Origin: a virus
DNA length: 64,000 bases
Virus record (IMG/VR): IMGVR_UViG_3300020204_000005
Direction: 5' to 3' (one strand)
The notes beneath the pieces are model-generated. The model worked only from the letters and a program-made list of their open reading frames with translations. It ran no database searches and was not told the origin of the DNA. Each line of letters begins with the position of its first letter. The first letter of the stretch is position 1. Positions 19,846 through 29,452 of the stretch are shown piece by piece. The translations under genes and the position numbers were made by a program.

Positions 19846-20931
19846 ATGGAAAGAAAATTAGCAAGTGTTAGAGTTATCGGGGATATCCAAAGAATCCCTG
19901 ATGCTGATATGATTGAATTGGCCATCGTTGATGGTTGGAAAGTTGTTGTTGCTAAGAATGTTGGTCATAAGGTAGGTGATAAAGTTGTTTACTGTGAAAT
20001 TGATTCATTCTTACCAATCAGAGACGAGTTTGAATTCTTAAGAAAGAGTTCACACAAAAAGATGGGTGACCAAGAAGGTTTCCGTTTAAAAACTATTAAA
20101 CTTCGTGGTCAAGTATCACAAGGTTTAATTTTACCTTTATCTGTTTTAAAAACTACTGATATTCCTATGATGACAACATCAAAACAAGAATGGGGTATTC
20201 AGTATGAAATGTTTGCAGAAGATGGTTTTCCTATGGTTGGAATTGGTGATGATGTTACTGAAATATTAGGTATTGTTAAATACGAACCACCAATCCCTGC
20301 AGAACTTACAGGAAAAGTAAAAGGATTGTTTCCATCTTTCTTACGTAAAACCGATGAAGAGAGAGTCCAAAACTTGGCTAAAGAATACCAAGGATACAGA
20401 TTCACCTCCGCTCATAAATTCTACGTAACTGAAAAGTTGGACGGTTCTTCAGCAACATTTTACTTTAAAGATGGTGTATTTGGAGTGTGTTCTCGTAATT
20501 TAGAATTAACTGAAAGTGAAGGAAATACTTTTTGGAAAGTTGCTCGCGAATTAAAGTTAGAGGAATTATTAGGTGAATTAGATAACAATATCTGTTTGCA
20601 AGGTGAGTTAATTGGGGAAGGTATTCAAGGAAATCCGTACAAAATTAAAGGTCAAACAGTTCGATTCTTTAATGGTTTTAATATAGACACTCAAGAGAAT
20701 ATTCCATTTTTAGAGTTTGTTGAGTTAGTTCAAAAAATGAAATTAAAAACGGTTCCAATATTAGACTTTGAATTTAATTTACCTGACACGATTGATGATA
20801 TGTTAGAATATGCCAACCAAAAGTCCGAATTAAATTCTAACTTTGATAGAGAAGGTGTGGTTGTTCGTTCTTACGATAGAAGAATTAGCTTTAAAGCAAT
20901 TAGTAATAAATTTTTATTAAACGAAAAATAA
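19846..20931 (+). CDS. ATP-dependent RNA ligase, DRB0094/Rnl2-like family, with N-terminal OB-like domain
   Basis: VTEKLDGSS (motif I), LQGELIGEGIQGN, REGVV, FKAISNKFLL. Confidence 0.9.
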   Translation: MERKLASVRVIGDIQRIPDADMIELAIVDGWKVVVAKNVGHKVGDKVVYCEIDSFLPIRDEFEFLRKSSHKKMGDQEGFRLKTIKLRGQVSQGLILPLSVLKTTDIPMMTTSKQEWGIQYEMFAEDGFPMVGIGDDVTEILGIVKYEPPIPAELTGKVKGLFPSFLRKTDEERVQNLAKEYQGYRFTSAHKFYVTEKLDGSSATFYFKDGVFGVCSRNLELTESEGNTFWKVARELKLEELLGELDNNICLQGELIGEGIQGNPYKIKGQTVRFFNGFNIDTQENIPFLEFVELVQKMKLKTVPILDFEFNLPDTIDDMLEYANQKSELNSNFDREGVVVRSYDRRISFKAISNKFLLNEK

Positions 20932-20946
20932 TACTATATTTGCAAC

Positions 20947-21999
20947 ATGTTAGAATTGTTGAACAAATATTACGAGGATGGGTTGGTGACAAAACAAGTT
21001 CATCCAACTCTTCCTTTGTCTATATGGAACTACACCCCAAAAGTACAATATGGTCTTTTATATAATCAATACGCTTTATGGGATGAGGTAACTACTCAAG
21101 CAAGAGGTTTAGTTGTTGATGAAAATAGTAACGTTGTTGCAAGACCATTTAAAAAATTTTTTAATATAGAAGAAAAAAGATTCACACCAACTAAAGAATT
21201 TGATGTGTATGAAAAAATGGATGGTTCTTTAGGTATATTATTTAACTATGAAGGTGAATGGATATTTGCATCTAAAGGTTCTTTTACTTCAGACCAATCA
21301 GCCGAATTCAAAAAAATATTTGATGAAAAATATTCGACTAATTTATTAGACTTTTCTTGTACTTATTTGTTTGAAATATTATATCCTGAAAATAGAATAG
21401 TGGTTAACTATGGTGATTTAAGAGATGTGGTATTATTAGGTAAAATAGTAACTGAGTCTGGTGAAGAACTTGACGTGGAATCATATCGGAATAACTTTAA
21501 TGTTGTTAAAAAATATGATGGAATAACTGATTACACTTTTTTGAAAAAAATGGTTGCCGATAACCATGAAGGTTTTATAGTAAAATTTTTTAATGGAAAT
21601 AGAATAAAAGTGAAAGGAGAAGAATATCTTCGATTACATAAAATAATGACTAACATATCAACTACTTCTGTTTGGGAAGTTTTAAGTAATCAAGGAGATA
21701 TAGGTGAATTATTAAATGATGTTCCTGATGAATTTTATGATAAGATAAAATCTTATGAAAAGGATTTAAAATACCATTTTCATCAAATAAATGAGTATTG
21801 TGGTAAACTACATGATGGTTTTAGATATGGTAAGTATGGTGATGTTGACCCTGAACCAACTAAAAAAGAATTTGCAGAATTTGTTATGAGAAATGTAACA
21901 AAAACTGGTTTACGTCCTGTACTATTTGCTATGTGGGATAAAAAACCATATGACTACATAATATGGAGATTATTAAAACCTGAGTTTAGAAAACTATAA
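20947..21999 (+). CDS. T4 Rnl1-like RNA ligase
   Basis: ARGLV...ARPFKKFFN, YEKMDGSLG, FEILYPENRIVV, EGFIV, RIKVKGEEY. Confidence 0.9.
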   Translation: MLELLNKYYEDGLVTKQVHPTLPLSIWNYTPKVQYGLLYNQYALWDEVTTQARGLVVDENSNVVARPFKKFFNIEEKRFTPTKEFDVYEKMDGSLGILFNYEGEWIFASKGSFTSDQSAEFKKIFDEKYSTNLLDFSCTYLFEILYPENRIVVNYGDLRDVVLLGKIVTESGEELDVESYRNNFNVVKKYDGITDYTFLKKMVADNHEGFIVKFFNGNRIKVKGEEYLRLHKIMTNISTTSVWEVLSNQGDIGELLNDVPDEFYDKIKSYEKDLKYHFHQINEYCGKLHDGFRYGKYGDVDPEPTKKEFAEFVMRNVTKTGLRPVLFAMWDKKPYDYIIWRLLKPEFRKL

Positions 22000-22694: not shown

Positions 22695-23903
22695 ATGATA
22701 ATTTATATTTTAGAAGGACCACAATTAGTAGATACTTCAAAGTACACAGGTATTAATTTTAAAGATAGAGTAGTTGGTAGTAGTACACCATCTAAAGACA
22801 AAATTAATCCATCTTTATTAGCTGATGTTGACAAAGCTGCAATAATCGCGGGCACCAAAGCAAGTGTTACAACTGCGGTTACAGGGCACAGACCTGGGTC
22901 AAGACACAATCCTGGAGGTTTGGCGGTTGATTTGGCGATGTTTGATGGTAAGGGTTATGGTAGTAAAGAGGATGCTAAAAAGAAAGGTATATATGATAAA
23001 ATAGAAAAATTTGTCAAAGCCTTAGAAAGTATGGGTTATAAGGTAAATTCAGAAAGGGGGAATGACAAGGCTGTTTTATGGTTTGGTTTTCCTAATCACC
23101 ATCATCATGTTCATGTCTCAAGACTATCGGATGATGGAACCTCAACTTCATCTTCATCCTCATCAGAAGATTCTGATAACAATTCCGATGATAGTAGTGA
23201 AACTACAAAAACAACAACCTCACCACCTCCAACAGACAGTAAACCAAAGGGTTTGGATTTCAACACCCTTGGGTTGATTAGTGCTTTAGGTAGATTATCC
23301 GAAAACAAAAAAAATAAAAACATGGGTAGATTATTAAATGAAATAGAAAAAATTAATAGGATTAATAAAGTAGTTATTTCCGAAGGTGCTTTACAAGTTT
23401 CTTATCCTAAGATTGTTTTTACACCGTCTGAATCAAATTTCCAAAATACAAATAAAAATCTTTTAACTGATTTAAATTCAATTGGGTCTGAAAAAAATAT
23501 TACGGTAAATATAACTGGCAGTACTCCCGATTCTGTATATGTAATTTTAAATGATGTTATAAAAAGTAAATTAACTGAAAAAGGATACGGAGGCGGTAAA
23601 ACTCAAAACCCTAATAAATATTATATGGATTATAATGGGTCAATTTACGTGTTTAATAACACAGTTACTTCACAAACTACGGATTCGGCAACAACCACAA
23701 CAACAACTAAATCATCAACGAGCTCAACAACTAATACAACAACTTTAAAAATAGATACTAGTAGTGCTCAAACGGCTGCCGATTCATTAATTGATTCTGT
23801 ATTAAGTGGTTTTGTGGCACCATTCGCAACTTCTGAAAGTGTTGGTAATAAAAAAGAAAAACTTCTAAATGAGATTAATCGTATTAAAAAAAATATGATA
23901 TAA
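22695..23903 (+). CDS. M15-like (LAS-fold) peptidoglycan peptidase domain protein with S/T-rich linkers
   Basis: GSRHNPGGLAVD ... HHHVHVS zinc-ligand pattern; LLNEIEKI and LLNEINRI motifs. Confidence 0.6.
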   Translation: MIIYILEGPQLVDTSKYTGINFKDRVVGSSTPSKDKINPSLLADVDKAAIIAGTKASVTTAVTGHRPGSRHNPGGLAVDLAMFDGKGYGSKEDAKKKGIYDKIEKFVKALESMGYKVNSERGNDKAVLWFGFPNHHHHVHVSRLSDDGTSTSSSSSSEDSDNNSDDSSETTKTTTSPPPTDSKPKGLDFNTLGLISALGRLSENKKNKNMGRLLNEIEKINRINKVVISEGALQVSYPKIVFTPSESNFQNTNKNLLTDLNSIGSEKNITVNITGSTPDSVYVILNDVIKSKLTEKGYGGGKTQNPNKYYMDYNGSIYVFNNTVTSQTTDSATTTTTTKSSTSSTTNTTTLKIDTSSAQTAADSLIDSVLSGFVAPFATSESVGNKKEKLLNEINRIKKNMI

Positions 23904-23934
23904 AAAACCCCACCTTTCGATGGGGATAACCAAA

Positions 23935-24093
23935 TTACTTAGTTTTTACCGTGTCTACTTTGTTTGTAGCAGTTGAGTCAACAACTTCACTTGTTGTACT
24001 TACACTGTCAGTTGCAGGAACTTCGTTTGAAGTTGCTCCACCTCCGCATGATGCTAACAAAACAATAAGACCACCAAAAATTAACTTTTTCAT
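23935..24093 (-). CDS. Micro-lipoprotein, 52 aa (not in ORF track)
   Basis: MKKLIFGGLIVLLASC-GGGATSNEVPATDSVSTTSEVVDSTATNKVDTVKTK; lipobox LASC. Confidence 0.8.
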   Translation of the reverse strand: MKKLIFGGLIVLLASCGGGATSNEVPATDSVSTTSEVVDSTATNKVDTVKTK

Positions 24094-24239
24094 ATTATTT
24101 ATTGTTTTAGATACAATAAATATAGGTTTAATGTTTATAAATCAATAACCAATTAATTAATTTTTATTAAATTAATATAGAAACCAATATTTCCGAAATG
24201 ACTGTTTCGGAACTTTTTTATTTTTTTTTTCTTAAAGTA

Positions 24240-24700
24240 CTTGTCAGAAAGAAAAAAATGTTTAACTTTGTAAAACAAATCAGAAATAACTGATAACGTT
24301 CTTTTAAATAATTTAGTATTAACTTTTAAAAACTCGAAAAATGAGTGAAGGGACACAAGTTCTTGATAACTTGATTTTTTCCTACATTGGAAAAAACGGT
24401 GTTAGGTACCACACCCCAAATCCAAATTTAGCACAGGCACGTGCTAATTTTTACGAGACATACACTGTCTACGTAACTAAAGTGGAAGAGGTAGAGGGAA
24501 AATGAAAAAAGTTAACAAAGTACTTGACAATTAAAAAAAATTGTTTAACTTTGTAAAACCTTTCAGATAAAGGTTGGAATTACCGTAAAACAAAGGTCTC
24601 CTAAATCTGAAAAAAAAAGTAGAGAAAAATTTGGAAGTTTAAAAAATTGTTCTTAACTTTGTAAAACAAATCGGAAACGTCCGATAACGTTCTTTGAAAT
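24240..24700 (+). promoter_or_regulatory. Three tandem Bacteroidota sigma-A promoters; two followed by boxB-hairpin + boxA-like elements
   Basis: TAACTTTG at 24263, 24546 and 24654, each with an upstream TTG. ATCAG-aaataa-CTGAT-AACGTTCTTTTAAAT and ATCGG-aaacgt-CCGAT-AACGTTCTTTGAAAT. Confidence 0.75.
24341..24505 (+). CDS. Small hypothetical protein, 54 aa (not in ORF track)
   Basis: MSEGTQVLDNLIFSYIGKNGVRYHTPNPNLAQARANFYETYTVYVTKVEEVEGK; follows the first promoter. Confidence 0.6.
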   Translation: MSEGTQVLDNLIFSYIGKNGVRYHTPNPNLAQARANFYETYTVYVTKVEEVEGK

Positions 24701-24709
24701 TTTAGATAT

Positions 24710-25575
24710 CCATTCAGGAGTAGATTAAAATCTTAGGATTTGAAACTGAAACTGATAAAGATATTGGGCCGTATATAGTCCATAAAATAAACCTCGAAAG
24801 GGGGATAAAGTGGAACCATCAGTGTTAGTGGTTCTGCGGTTTGGGAAACCGAACTCGAGTATACAAGTGGGATATCAGTGAGCCTGTAGTACCGAGGATA
24901 ACTTCGTAGGGAAATGGAAAACTGAATAGGCAATGTGGATTGTCTGTTTGAGGTGGGAACACCAATAAGAATAACCCATAGGAATCAAGTGAGAAATGTA
25001 TTTCCAAATACATGATTGCGGGTTCCAATATGAGAGGTGACTTAAAACCGAAGGGGTAATACCTGAAGGTAAGATAGAGAACGAGTGGTGTCGCTACTAT
25101 CCTTACCACAGACCCACCAAGGTCTTGGTACGAAGTAATCTTAAAATATGGAGGTAGGGATATCTCACGGAGTAGTATAGTATTCTGTTTCTCAAAAGGA
25201 AATGGAGCTTAAGGTGGACCACTACTTCGATTCATCCACGACACAAAAACTTTACTATTATTGAAGTAACATTTAAGAACATAAAGGAAAAGTGTCCATC
25301 AGGTTTTGGTGAAAGGTGACTACATAGTAATGAGCCGTTCATTGCACACAAGGACCCCAAGTCTGAGTGTAGTTTTACCAAAGACCTCTAGTCCCGCAAG
25401 GATTTATTGGGGAGGCATCCTCGAAGAGAGTTGAGTAATAAGAGAGTAACCAAAATCTCAAGGAGTGGTAAACCTAAAAGACCGTCACTGAGGAATACTT
25501 CTTAAAAGGAAGTGGATAAGAGTAGAAACAATAATGACTCTAAAGGTTCTCAATTAACAGGTGTAATCTCAGCCT
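24710..25575 (+). ncRNA. Giant structured ncRNA, GOLLD-like (class not confirmed)
   Basis: About 870 nt, GC/purine-enriched, no credible ORF. Many short hairpins with GNRA-like loops (CCTC-gaaa-GGGG, TCC-cgcaa-GGA, ACTTC-ttaaaag-GAAGT). Ends ...GTGTAATCTCAGCC before a T-run; adjacent to a tRNA. Confidence 0.65.
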
Positions 25576-25643
25576 TTTTTTAGCTATACATTGTTAAACG
25601 TAAAAAGGTAGTTCGTTAGTTTAAAAATGATATATTTATATAT

Positions 25644-26180
25644 ATGAAATATACAATTTACAAAATTACAAATACGTTAAATAACAAAATTTACATAGGT
25701 AAGCACCAAACAGAAAATATTAATGATAGTTATTTTGGTTCTGGTGTTTTATTAGAGAAAGCAATAAAGAAATACGGTAAAAAATTTTTCACTAAAGAAA
25801 TTTTGTTCATATTCAATACCGAGAATGAAATGGATTTAAAAGAACGAGAGATAGTTACCGAAGAATTCATTAAAAGGAAAGATACATATAATAAATCCTT
25901 GGGGGGTGAAGGAGGTTCTAATTTCAAAGGAAAAAAACATACTAATGAAACTAAACAAAAATTATCAGATATTAGTAAAGGTAGAATTTTTTCTGAAGAA
26001 ACAAGAAATAAAATTTCTGAAGGAAATAGAAAAAGAGTTCTTAGTGAAAGTACAAAACTAAAACTTTCCGAAAAGGCGAAATTAAGATTTCAAAATGAAG
26101 AAACGAGAAAAAAACATTCTGAAATAATGAAACAGTATTATACAAAAAATATCGTGGTGGTTTCCAGCTCGGTCTCATAA
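25644..26180 (+). CDS. GIY-YIG homing endonuclease with NUMOD3-like repeats
   Basis: TIYKITNTLNNKIYIGKH, YFGSG, YN; KGKKHTNETKQKLS repeats; ATATTTAT at 25632-25639. Confidence 0.9.
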   Translation: MKYTIYKITNTLNNKIYIGKHQTENINDSYFGSGVLLEKAIKKYGKKFFTKEILFIFNTENEMDLKEREIVTEEFIKRKDTYNKSLGGEGGSNFKGKKHTNETKQKLSDISKGRIFSEETRNKISEGNRKRVLSESTKLKLSEKAKLRFQNEETRKKHSEIMKQYYTKNIVVVSSSVS

Positions 26181-26214
26181 GCCGAATACGGGGGTTCGAG
26201 TCCCTCACCCGCTA
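26152..26214 (+). pseudogene. 5'-truncated tRNA-Met(CAU)
   Basis: TCGGT-ctCATaa-GCCGA, GGGGG-ttcgagt-CCCTC, 3' acceptor ACCCGCT-A. The 5' acceptor strand (AGCGGGT) is absent and replaced by GIY-YIG coding sequence. Confidence 0.75.
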
Positions 26215-26590
26215 CTAAGTGACTCCAAACAAATGATAGGTCGGTAATTAACGATATCCCGTGAAGTTATGAGTATAAACTAACCTTCAAAATTCTCGTA
26301 AAGGTTTTTGGTGATTGTTCTGTAGTTGATAACGACCAATTTTAATCCTTAAAAATTAATAAAAAATGAATTCTACCTTGAGGTGTCAATCCAAAGACTG
26401 AAGAAGTTTGAGAAAAAAATTGGTAAGGGACCTCTTTTTAGATGTGGGTACTATGATAACCACAGTGTTTAGGTCTTAAAACGGAAAACACATAAAACAA
26501 ATAGTCGTGAATACTAGTCACCACCCAACGTCACAGGGTTCTGTAGTTGTCTCACTAACAACTCGGTAGGTTTAGATTCCTAGGACAAAC

Positions 26591-26636
26591 AAGAGGGAAG
26601 AACTAACGTAATGTTAAATTCTTCCCTCTTTTTTTT
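26591..26636. terminator. Strong intrinsic terminator
   Basis: AAGAGGGAAGAA...TTCTTCCCTCTT followed by a T-run. Confidence 0.8.
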
Positions 26637-26721
26637 ATTTTATATTAATTCATAAGGTAGACTTGCTCATTCAAAACATTATTGTGACAACTTTTAAATC
26701 TTAGTTTTTGTATTTATTATT

Positions 26722-28935
26722 ATGAGAAATATTTTAGCACTTTTAACCTACCTAATTAGTTTTGTCGGTTTCGGACAATACTGTCCATATTTAGGTCCTG
26801 ACCAATTATTACCTTGCGGGTCCAACTCAACAACACTTACCGCGGACTTAACCCAATGTGGAGTTGGGGGTATTAATCCAAATCAAACAACAAATTATAA
26901 TGTAACAAATATACCTTACGTTGCTCAAGTAAATAACGGTACTAATTTAACAATGACCGATGATTCCCAACAGGGTCCGTTTAATATAGGTTTTAATTTT
27001 TGTTTTTTTGGTACGACGTATACTCAATTTTGGATAGGGTCTAACGGATGGATATCTTTTTCGCCAAACCAACCAACAACATTTACTTCTCAATCAATAC
27101 CAACAACTAATGGCTTAGTACCAAAAAATTGTATAATGGGTCCTTGGCAAGATTGGCACCCTGGAATTGGTGGTCAAATAAAATACCAAGTTCAAGGAGT
27201 TGCACCTTGTCGTAAATTAATTGTTAGTTGGGTTAATATGCCAATGTATTCATGTACTTCTAATCTTGGTACGTTTCACATTATAATTTATGAAACAACT
27301 AATATCATAGAAAATCACATTCAAAGTAAACCTGCATGTCTACAATGGCAAAATGGAACTTCTGTTGAGGGTATCCATAATTTAGCAGGTACAATTGGGA
27401 TAACAGTACCAGGAAGAAACTCAACCGCTTGGGTTGCACAAAATGATTCTTGGAGATGGACACCTTCAGGACCTGTAGTGACTCCGACATTAACTTGGTA
27501 TCAGGTTGGTAATCCTATACCAATAGGGACGGGTCCATCAATAACGGTTAACCCACCTGCCGCGGGAGCGAGTTACACCTGTCATTTTGTATATCCGACA
27601 TGTAATGCAGGATGGGTAACATGTAATGGTTCACTTGGTTTAGGTCCTGATACTGTATTAGTTGTTCCTGGTCCACCTAATTTACCTTTACCAACCATAA
27701 TATCTAATGAACCAACTTGTAACGGGTATTGTGATGGTAGTCTTATAATAACTCCGAATGGAGGTAATGGAGCTCAAACAATTTCATGGAATGGACCCCA
27801 ATCTGGATTCAATCCAAACAACCTATGTTCAGGGAATTATGTTTTTACTTTAACAGATGCTTTAGGGTGTACAATAACAAGTAACGTTACATTAATGGAC
27901 CCTCCACCACTAATTATAAACCCTATTGTTGGTGAGGATACTATATGTATTAATTCTATTAGTGATTTTTATAACACAACAAATTTAATTACGGGTTTAA
28001 ATTATGTTTGGTCAACAACCAACGGAATTATTAATAACGGACAAGGAACAAATCAGATTACTGTTGACGTTAATGGTACCCAATCAGGTTTTTACAATAA
28101 CATGATAACTGTATACGGTATTGACGGAAACGGATGTCAGTCTCAAACAGAACTAATCGATATAACTATTTTTAATCTTACACCTTTTATAAATCCTGTC
28201 GGTCCATTCTGTTCTTATGACGAATTTGTTACTTTAGAATCATCACCTATTGGTGGTTATTATACAGGAAATGGTGTTATAAATAATGATTTTTTTCCCA
28301 TAAATGCGGTTGGTAATAATCTTATAACGTATACTTACACACAAAGTGGATGTTTGTTTACAACAACCGAGACAATTATTGTTTACCCACAACCGATAAT
28401 TGAAACCTTAACACCGTCAAACCCATTTTTTGAAGTTTGTATGGGAGATTCGGTTAACATCAATTTTGAATTGACATCAAATCCTCAAGGAATTAATCAA
28501 TGGTCATTTATTGATAGTATTTATAATACCCAAGCATACAATCAAACTTTTAGTAGTGAAGGAACTTATATAATTTCAGTTACCACAACAACAAACGGAT
28601 GTATTTCTAACCCAGAACAAACTACAGTTATTATTGACGAATGCCCTGAAGAGTTGATATATATACCAAACTCATTCACACCTGATGGAGATGAACATAA
28701 CAATATATGGAAACCTGTATTTACATCAGGACTTGACCCATATGATTTTAGAATGGAAATCTATAATAGATGGGGAGAATTAATATGGGTTAGTGAAAAC
28801 CCTTTAGTTGGGTGGGACGGTACTTTTAATGGTAACTACTGTCAAGACGGTGTCTACTTATGGAAGTTAGAATTTGGTATACCCGAAAATGACGGAAGAA
28901 AAAAAATGTTTGGACATTTAACAACTTTTAGATAA
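26722..28935 (+). CDS. Secreted adhesin-like protein with type-B T9SS (gliding-motility-associated) C-terminal domain
   Basis: Signal peptide ending FGQ; SprB/PKD-like repeats; CTD IYIPNSFTPDGDEHNNIWKP...IYNRWGELIW...WDGTFNG...DGVYLWKL. Confidence 0.85.
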   Translation: MRNILALLTYLISFVGFGQYCPYLGPDQLLPCGSNSTTLTADLTQCGVGGINPNQTTNYNVTNIPYVAQVNNGTNLTMTDDSQQGPFNIGFNFCFFGTTYTQFWIGSNGWISFSPNQPTTFTSQSIPTTNGLVPKNCIMGPWQDWHPGIGGQIKYQVQGVAPCRKLIVSWVNMPMYSCTSNLGTFHIIIYETTNIIENHIQSKPACLQWQNGTSVEGIHNLAGTIGITVPGRNSTAWVAQNDSWRWTPSGPVVTPTLTWYQVGNPIPIGTGPSITVNPPAAGASYTCHFVYPTCNAGWVTCNGSLGLGPDTVLVVPGPPNLPLPTIISNEPTCNGYCDGSLIITPNGGNGAQTISWNGPQSGFNPNNLCSGNYVFTLTDALGCTITSNVTLMDPPPLIINPIVGEDTICINSISDFYNTTNLITGLNYVWSTTNGIINNGQGTNQITVDVNGTQSGFYNNMITVYGIDGNGCQSQTELIDITIFNLTPFINPVGPFCSYDEFVTLESSPIGGYYTGNGVINNDFFPINAVGNNLITYTYTQSGCLFTTTETIIVYPQPIIETLTPSNPFFEVCMGDSVNINFELTSNPQGINQWSFIDSIYNTQAYNQTFSSEGTYIISVTTTTNGCISNPEQTTVIIDECPEELIYIPNSFTPDGDEHNNIWKPVFTSGLDPYDFRMEIYNRWGELIWVSENPLVGWDGTFNGNYCQDGVYLWKLEFGIPENDGRKKMFGHLTTFR

Positions 28936-28974: not shown

Positions 28975-29372
28975 TGGTGGAGGTATGCGGAGTCGAACCG
29001 CGTCCTGCTCACATTACCTACTAAGGACTACACGCTTAGGTCAACATTTGAGCTAATGTTCCGAAATTTCACAATTCCCTTATTTTTAAAGTGGTTCGGT
29101 TTACTGAGAACTAATCCTCCACTTGTTCCTTTTCGGGTAGAAACCACACCTTTGTAAAGACTTCTGTTCCTGGGTTATATGTCCACCGACCCGAAGGTTT
29201 CGCTTAATCTGATTAAGCTACCGCCACTTCCTCAGTACGAACAAGTCCTACTGCAGAAAGTTTGTTGATAACGTTGCCGTTTATCGATTTTGAACCATTT
29301 TAACAAGGTTAGATTCATCCTTGACGTGCCCCGAGTAACTAACTATGACAGTCAATTTCCAAGGTTACCCCC
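28975..29372 (-). ncRNA. ssrA: tmRNA
   Basis: 5' GGGGGTA pairs with 3' TACCTCC-ACCA; T arm GCGG-TTCGACT-CCGC; tag ORF 29278-29213 GNVINKLSAVGLVRTEEVAVA*; TATATTTG promoter on the minus strand at 29397-29404. Confidence 0.9.
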
Positions 29373-29452
29373 ATATGTTAAAGAACTTTTGTTTTACAAA
29401 TATACAAAAAAAATCCTTATTATCAAATTTTTCAATATTTATTTGTATAAAT

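Follow-up and report, generated by a model that had tools for sequence, protein, structure and literature searches.

A complete GOLLD RNA behind a ribosomal-type boxA leader in a large phage of probable Bacteroidota hosts

A structured RNA of about 873 nt is encoded at positions 24703–25575 (plus strand) of a 64,000-nt stretch of phage DNA, which we call the window, and its best explanation overall is that it is a complete GOLLD RNA carried by a large Bacteroidota phage; we put the probability of this reading at about 0.88. GOLLDs are among the largest non-coding RNAs of bacteria and phages, and have been known since 2025 to form RNA-only cages. The IMG/VR virus record to which the window belongs has 102,672 bp and is estimated to be 35% complete; a record of this length at this completeness implies that the phage is large. 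An earlier reading of the letters alone had proposed that a long, hairpin-rich non-coding RNA of GOLLD-like appearance lies here, expressed as if it were an rRNA, and had allowed for a divergent or new class. Most of that reading holds; the suggestion of a new class does not.

The 3′ half of the RNA matches the Rfam GOLLD family (RF02032) at 25168–25575 (plus strand) with 314.4 bits and an E-value of 4e-89. The match covers model positions 1–416 of 416, with no truncation, and reaches twice the gathering score of 150 bits; it ends on the very nucleotide, 25575, that the sequence-only reading had given as the 3′ end. When 23500–27000 was scanned with Rfam at E ≤ 1, the two matches besides GOLLD were a sub-threshold tRNA at 26156–26214 and a chance similarity to a plant-virus element. 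Group I introns, rRNA fragments, ROOL and OLE had no match at the Rfam gathering threshold in the window, and none at E ≤ 1 within 23500–27000 either. A search with the Rfam models had been named as the check on the GOLLD guess, and an intron or rRNA match as what would overturn it; the first found GOLLD and the second did not appear, so a guess made from size, context and appearance has become a full-length family match. The elevated G+C content that had been read here is also real (38–43% over 24650–25550, compared with 31.8% for the window), and the setting is that of other GOLLDs: a virus record, with a tRNA-Met remnant and a group of five tRNA genes in the neighbourhood.

To examine how this RNA is conserved, we scanned IMG/VR with a 16-mer of the 3′ domain, which recovered over 115 phage contigs, with lengths reaching 304 kb. 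Forty-one non-identical contigs are homologous over the whole of 24603–25582 at 70–84% identity, and these were aligned with the window (42 loci; alignment A1). The RNAalifold consensus over 24698–25582 contains 225 pairs, with 96.5% of cells canonical across the 41 relatives and compensatory double changes in 117 of the pairs. In controls in which the 3′ partners were slid by 1–3 columns, 39–42% of cells were canonical and 26–47 pairs were compensatory. Helices of the 3′ domain (25168–25552) are 87–100% canonical in the 41 relatives, most of them with compensatory pairs, and those of the 5′ domain are 89–100% canonical with many compensatory changes. The window RNA folded singly has a minimum free energy of −241 kcal/mol (z = −4.67 against 20 shuffles). 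Both halves of the GOLLD are kept in shape by selection, and a long structured non-coding RNA does lie where one had been read. RNAalifold also paired 24857–24864 with 25561–25570 in the 3′-terminal loop; this pairing is inconsistent in several relatives and, because it shows no compensatory change, we do not claim it.

The 3′ domain (25168–25575, plus strand), defined by the Rfam match and by covariation, begins with a hairpin at 25168–25229, continues through a variable A/U-rich linker at about 25232–25290 that contains no tRNA, and also holds the conserved core. It closes with a terminal hairpin of 3 bp with the loop GUAAUCUCA, followed by seven T (25559–25582, plus strand; Rfam alignment), and homology to the relatives stops at this hairpin and T run. 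The Rfam model is limited to the conserved 3′ half of GOLLD, so the upstream half was analysed separately. Nucleotides 3–142 of env-38, a GOLLD of known structure, align to 24767–24902 at 68% identity (E 5e-11). The formal alignment was made with the first 145 nt of env-38 and the rest of the printed construct is colinear by eye, with a GGATAAAGTG block common to both RNAs. This alignment, the covariation and the relatives define a 5′ domain at 24766–25167 (plus strand), and they show it to be, by homology, of the same type as the env-38 ‘cap’ domain. No near-identical copy of env-38 itself was found among the 115 loci, or in IMG/VR by a 21-mer search. Within the 5′ domain, a 14-nt insertion at 25052–25065 that would form a small extra hairpin is absent from the 41 relatives; close to this point env-38 carries a longer hairpin.

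Upstream of the point at which env-38 nucleotide 3 aligns, the window RNA has a further ~60 nt that we call P0 (24703–24765, plus strand). In single-sequence folds P0 is a helix of UAUC/GAUA and UCAG/CUGA around a variable hairpin, and its four core pairs are 86–90% canonical with an AU-to-GC switch. The structured part of the RNA therefore begins at about 24703, immediately after the boxA word at 24689–24697 described below; the start at 24710 that had been read lies 7 nt inside the first helix, so that of the earlier span the end stands and the start moves. The resulting length of ~873 nt accords with that of GOLLDs, which measure ~700–850 nt or more and have a less conserved 5′ domain. Since the RF02032 match is full length and homology to known GOLLDs, the solved env-38 among them, extends over both halves, this RNA is a canonical GOLLD, an added member of a known family, and a new class is not supported.

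Env-38, from a marine metagenome, forms a 14-mer cage seen by cryo-EM (PDB 9MEE; Kretsch et al. 2025, PMC12286853), and kissing loops between its molecules were argued from loop dinucleotides that switch among self-complementary words. The same signature is present in the two corresponding small hairpins here. In the hairpin resembling L21a (25391–25403) the loop dinucleotide is GC in 30, CG in 10 and AU in 2 of the 42 A1 sequences, all of them self-complementary, and in the hairpin resembling L21b (25407–25424) it is GC in every one. The GOLLD of Streptococcus agalactiae, which forms a 12-mer, is without this second hairpin (P21b). The loop dinucleotides give indirect support for an assembly, probably one like that of env-38, in which the RNA would fold into two domains and several molecules of it would build a closed RNA-only cage. 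We consider it likely that some cage is formed. Oligomer number varies among GOLLDs, being 12 in S. agalactiae and 14 in env-38, and we give about even odds to a 14-mer.

Comparison with the solved RNAs places the window RNA closest to the marine one. Env-38 has the same two-domain layout and the same two small hairpins with self-complementary loop dinucleotides, at 833 nt against 873 nt here. It differs in that its tRNA-Met lies upstream, whereas in the window the tRNA lies downstream and is now broken, and the ~60-nt P0, the boxA leader and a defined host phylum belong to the window RNA. The S. agalactiae GOLLD (12-mer, PDB 9L0R; its 3′ domain alone is a 10-mer, 9LMF) belongs to the same family and shares the 3′ domain, but is without P9, P11a–c and P21b, whereas the window RNA keeps a hairpin at the P21b position and a 5′ domain of the env-38 type. 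ROOL (Rfam; 8-mer cage) is likewise a large RNA of phages or prophages that is found near tRNA genes and forms an RNA-only cage, but its sequence and fold are unrelated to those of GOLLD and it has no match in the window.

We then consider how this RNA would be expressed. Upstream of it is a candidate promoter of the Bacteroidota type, P3 (24630–24661, plus strand), read from sequence as TTTG at 24630–24633, a 20-nt spacer and TAACTTTG at 24654–24661. Two similar promoters lie further upstream, with TAACTTTG at 24263 and 24546, so that three direct-repeat copies of the type TTG(N19-20)TAnnTTTG precede the GOLLD; an exact 14-mer, TAACTTTGTAAAAC, occurs in three copies, at these promoters only. 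The TTG and TAnnTTTG pair is kept in most of the 41 relatives and is what we take to be the promoter consensus of Bacteroidota (Bacteroides). Host RNA polymerase would start at the TTTG/TAnnTTTG promoter, near 24667. A near-identical promoter box, TAnnTTTGTAAAAC, lies at 29391–29404 (minus strand) before the tmRNA gene of this phage, which suggests a strong promoter type shared by its stable RNAs.

Just after the predicted start site is a leader hairpin, AUCGGA-AACG-UCCGAU (24670–24685, plus strand), in the position of a boxB. It is predicted in most relatives when they are folded singly, and its columns are 52–74% canonical with CG-to-AU and AU-to-UA switches, which we regard as moderate support. 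The hairpin is followed by the boxA word GTTCTTTGA at 24689–24697 (plus strand), so that, as in a ribosomal (rrn) leader, boxA is preceded by a hairpin and the hairpin in turn directly by a promoter; the earlier placing of the RNA behind a boxA leader is borne out. The word is invariant in all 42 aligned loci, is better conserved than most of the GOLLD itself and occurs once in the 102.7-kb contig. Among 66 distinct GOLLD loci, 41 carry the word, and it accompanies 37 of 37 with this type of 5′ domain and 0 of 25 with another type; with 25 of the 66 loci lacking it, the word is not a general feature of GOLLD. We compared it with rrn leaders in 61 genomes sampled from the phylum to which a MAG titled Bacteroidota belongs; 23 of the genomes have at least 200 nt upstream of a 16S rRNA gene. 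The exact 9-mer lies 82–217 nt before 16S rRNA in 13 of these 23, against a chance expectation of ~0.002 per locus at such a position. The rrn leaders of Firmicutes have the same word as their boxA, and it therefore marks an rRNA leader rather than one phylum.

At rrn leaders boxA nucleates a Nus complex that blocks Rho termination and aids rRNA folding (PMC4807359, PMC10250234, PMC5725501). By analogy, the leader hairpin and boxA of the GOLLD would recruit the host NusB–S10 (Nus) factors, and the untranslated transcript would then be shielded from Rho and elongated quickly; we lean slightly towards this combination of Nus recruitment, Rho protection and fast elongation. The resemblance to the bacterial rrn leader (boxB-boxA-boxC, with NusA, NusB, NusE/S10, NusG, SuhB and S4) includes stacked promoters, the leader hairpin and the same boxA word, and the wider GOLLD unit has the order of an rrn operon: a long untranslated structured RNA, then a tRNA, further RNA and a terminator only at the end. 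It differs in that its product is not rRNA and that Nus binding is putative; no boxC was recognised in the GOLLD leader, and the sole long-range helix predicted (24857–24864 with 25561–25570) is without compensatory change and so provides no covariation-backed leader–trailer helix. The nut sites of phage lambda (boxA-boxB with the N protein) are likewise a phage use of host boxA for termination-resistant transcription, but lambda needs its own N protein and its sites serve mRNA, whereas here the hairpin precedes boxA, which is the rrn order, and an N-like gene was not identified. Among the papers listed by a literature search of incomplete coverage, none brings GOLLD together with boxA, antitermination or NusB.

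An alternative is that GTTCTTTGA is not an antitermination signal here, but a Nus-dependent repressor, processing or phage-factor site, with the GOLLD simply made from a strong promoter. A Nus complex at boxA is described as repressing suhB in Escherichia coli (PMC5725501); a near-copy of the leader (GTTCTTTTA, 24298) precedes a 54-codon ORF, not an RNA gene; and GOLLDs with other 5′ domains do without the word. Against this, exactly this word precedes 16S rRNA genes at the distance of an rrn leader, and here it has the usual position, 3′ of a hairpin and 5′ of a long untranslated structured RNA, a setting that needs antitermination (PMC4807359, PMC10250234). We regard the alternative as possible but the less probable. 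The earlier proposal, that this RNA would be expressed like an rRNA, is supported at the level of sequence signals, by a promoter of the host type, the hairpin in the leader and the boxA word of rrn operons. The near-copy is part of a first set of promoter, hairpin and one-base boxA variant within 24234–24505, before the ORF at 24341–24505, which is weakly conserved (51–54% over 35–37 aa in five relatives). In the 634-kb phage LR745206.1 (our locus L002) the boxA word occurs twice, at 1878 and 2437, with one copy between a promoter and an odd tRNA-like gene, the other between tRNA-Met and GOLLD.

To delimit the transcription unit, we looked downstream of the GOLLD in the relatives. A tRNA-Met(CAU) adjoins GOLLD in 11 of the 17 loci scanned for tRNAs: it follows directly in eight (L023, L015, L058, L012, L013, L045, L079 and L042) and precedes directly in three (L005, L080 and the 634-kb phage L002). 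In L115 and L020, the two closest relatives without the endonuclease gene described below, an intact tRNA-Met starts 12–18 nt past the GOLLD 3′ hairpin; this spacer leaves no room for a tRNA promoter, and co-transcription is thus the simplest reading. The GOLLD-adjacent tRNAs have an unpaired 1x72 (ARAGORN structures) and an A11:U24 pair (sequences), for example at L115:227–299, L020:5483–5555 and L023:8675–8747. We take these two features to be hallmarks of bacterial initiator tRNA. The tRNA-Met of L101, which is not adjacent to GOLLD, has the elongator pattern.

Behind the tRNA-Met is a second conserved RNA. In the window this trailing RNA (26215–26636, plus strand) is ORF-free, ~380–400 nt long, with its conserved stretch at 26215–26592, and ends in a strong intrinsic terminator (26592–26636, plus strand; stem 26592–26629, T run 26630–26636), the only strong one in the region and the probable end of the transcription unit. 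The trailing RNA is 86–91% identical in L020 and L115, and a profile built from six copies found full-length matches directly behind the tRNA-Met linked to GOLLD, in at least 10 further lineages. The consensus fold of 14 copies contains 32 pairs, 16 of them with compensatory change; the single-sequence minimum free energy is not exceptional (z = −0.83), and the scan of 23500–27000 gave no Rfam match for it. These observations suggest an ancestral unit in which transcription would run through the initiator-like tRNA-Met and the ~400-nt trailing RNA to the terminator at 26592–26636, and the GOLLD 3′ end would be released by RNase P cleavage at the tRNA. We consider such a single ancestral transcript, with release by RNase P, reasonably probable.

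In a competing account GOLLD would stand alone as a gene and stop at the T run 25576–25582, with tRNA-Met and trailing RNA as separate neighbours. The terminal hairpin leads into seven T here, as it does in many relatives, which means that some transcripts may stop at 25582; in L005, L080 and L002 the tRNA-Met comes before the GOLLD promoter, so that the linkage does not require co-transcription. However, the terminal hairpin has just 3 pairs, making hairpin and T run (25559–25582) a weak stop at best; L023, L058 and L045 have no T run after GOLLD, and some relatives run straight into the tRNA. The spacer to the tRNA in L115 and L020 is too short for a promoter, and the sole strong terminator comes after the trailing RNA. 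A stand-alone gene is therefore the less probable reading, and we prefer the single ancestral transcript.

In the window this arrangement has been broken by an insertion at 25595–26188 (plus strand) that carries an ORF for a GIY-YIG/NUMOD3 homing endonuclease (25644–26180; Pfam, PHROGs) and is absent in the closest relatives. L115 and L020 align to the window up to 25594 and again from 26189–26193, with 43–59 nt between, and the insertion sits exactly at the 5′ end of the tRNA-Met. What is left of the tRNA is a tRNA-Met(CAU) remnant at 26149–26214 (plus strand), recognised by alignment with the intact copies in relatives: its Rfam match (26156–26214) scores 27.9 bits against a cut-off of 29, ARAGORN makes no call, the D arm is ~11 nt short and the endonuclease ORF reaches its stop codon within the anticodon loop. 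The sequence-only reading had placed tRNA sequence after the RNA; a tRNA-like piece is present, but 580 nt downstream, behind the endonuclease gene. As we read the locus, the endonuclease gene has split GOLLD from its tRNA and broken the tRNA; GOLLD itself is intact. The remnant’s anticodon stem resembles that of L012 and not that of L115, which suggests that flanking donor DNA was co-converted with the endonuclease. There is no other tRNA-Met on the 102.7-kb contig; as the record is about one third of the genome, further GOLLD copies or another tRNA-Met may exist elsewhere. The linkage itself, which had been read from this one locus, recurs in the phage relatives in which tRNA-Met adjoins GOLLD.

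The gene order around GOLLD recurs in relatives, and related GOLLDs occur in two published huge phage genomes, LR745206.1 and LR756502.1 (634 and 642 kb). Downstream of the unit lie a gene for a protein with a type IX secretion (T9SS) CHU_C domain (26722–28935; Pfam, PHROGs), its neighbour tmRNA (28975–29372, minus strand) and, next in order, a peptidase and a ClpB/ClpC-like ATPase; upstream, the group of five tRNAs lies 9–13 kb from the GOLLD. The promoters, the CHU_C secretion domain and the best ClpC-like matches point to a host among the Bacteroidota. The ClpC-like protein was set aside as a host pointer, its best four matches being Bacteroidota MAG contigs at 57% and others, from Clostridia and further groups, reaching ~50%; its matches were used only to choose the phylum for the rrn sampling. 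Two RNA ligases lie side by side at 19846–21999 (Pfam, PHROGs), 3–5 kb upstream of the GOLLD, one with a PHA02142 OB-fold and an RNA_ligase domain and the other of the T4 Rnl1 type; the pair is syntenic in several relatives.

Around GOLLD, then, tRNAs, two RNA ligases and a tmRNA form an island, and from this we venture, as a tentative guess at most, that the target of the cage is the translation apparatus, with tRNA or parts of the ribosome being held or shielded by it. The cage could instead be a decoy or shield against host defences that target RNA, such as anticodon nucleases. The two upstream ligases are of the tRNA-repair type, tRNAs are embedded in or lie beside GOLLDs, and the idea of storage or shielding has already been published; but no defence or anti-defence gene was identified beside the GOLLD here among the neighbours annotated by Pfam and PHROGs, and we think a decoy quite improbable.

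The remaining alternatives concern what the RNA is. That it belongs to a new or strongly divergent class which merely resembles GOLLD could be argued from the ~60-nt extension upstream of the env-38 alignment and from the coverage of Rfam, restricted to the 3′ half, given that GOLLD 5′ halves are known to vary. A full-length RF02032 match at twice the gathering score, an upstream half that aligns to env-38 (E 5e-11) with the GGATAAAGTG block in both, and covariation that excludes the covariance-model match as an artefact make this very improbable indeed. That the stretch instead codes for protein on the minus strand, where a 94-aa GTG ORF does exist at 24825–25109, can be dismissed, because this ORF is open in 0 of 39 relatives, 21 relatives have length differences that are not multiples of three, and the substitutions are base-pair compensatory. 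The stretch is accordingly not free of ORFs, as had been read, in the literal sense, but the one it contains is refuted as a gene.

This locus adds nothing new on the fold of GOLLD; the comparison with its relatives provides three handles. One large clade always carries a host rRNA boxA before GOLLD, which predicts Nus-dependent, Rho-resistant synthesis; GOLLD is tied to an initiator-like tRNA-Met; and a second conserved RNA, with no Rfam match, lies behind it, seemingly in one transcription unit. We speculate that in this clade GOLLD may be the first gene of a ribosomal-operon look-alike: a boxA-guarded transcript with a cage RNA, an initiator-type tRNA-Met and an undescribed RNA of ~400 nt, which would have a joint role in translation initiation or ribosome handling, and in which the Nus machinery would both complete the transcript and help it to fold. 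With the boxA, the tRNA-Met and the trailing RNA as starting points, GOLLD may come to be assigned to a pathway.
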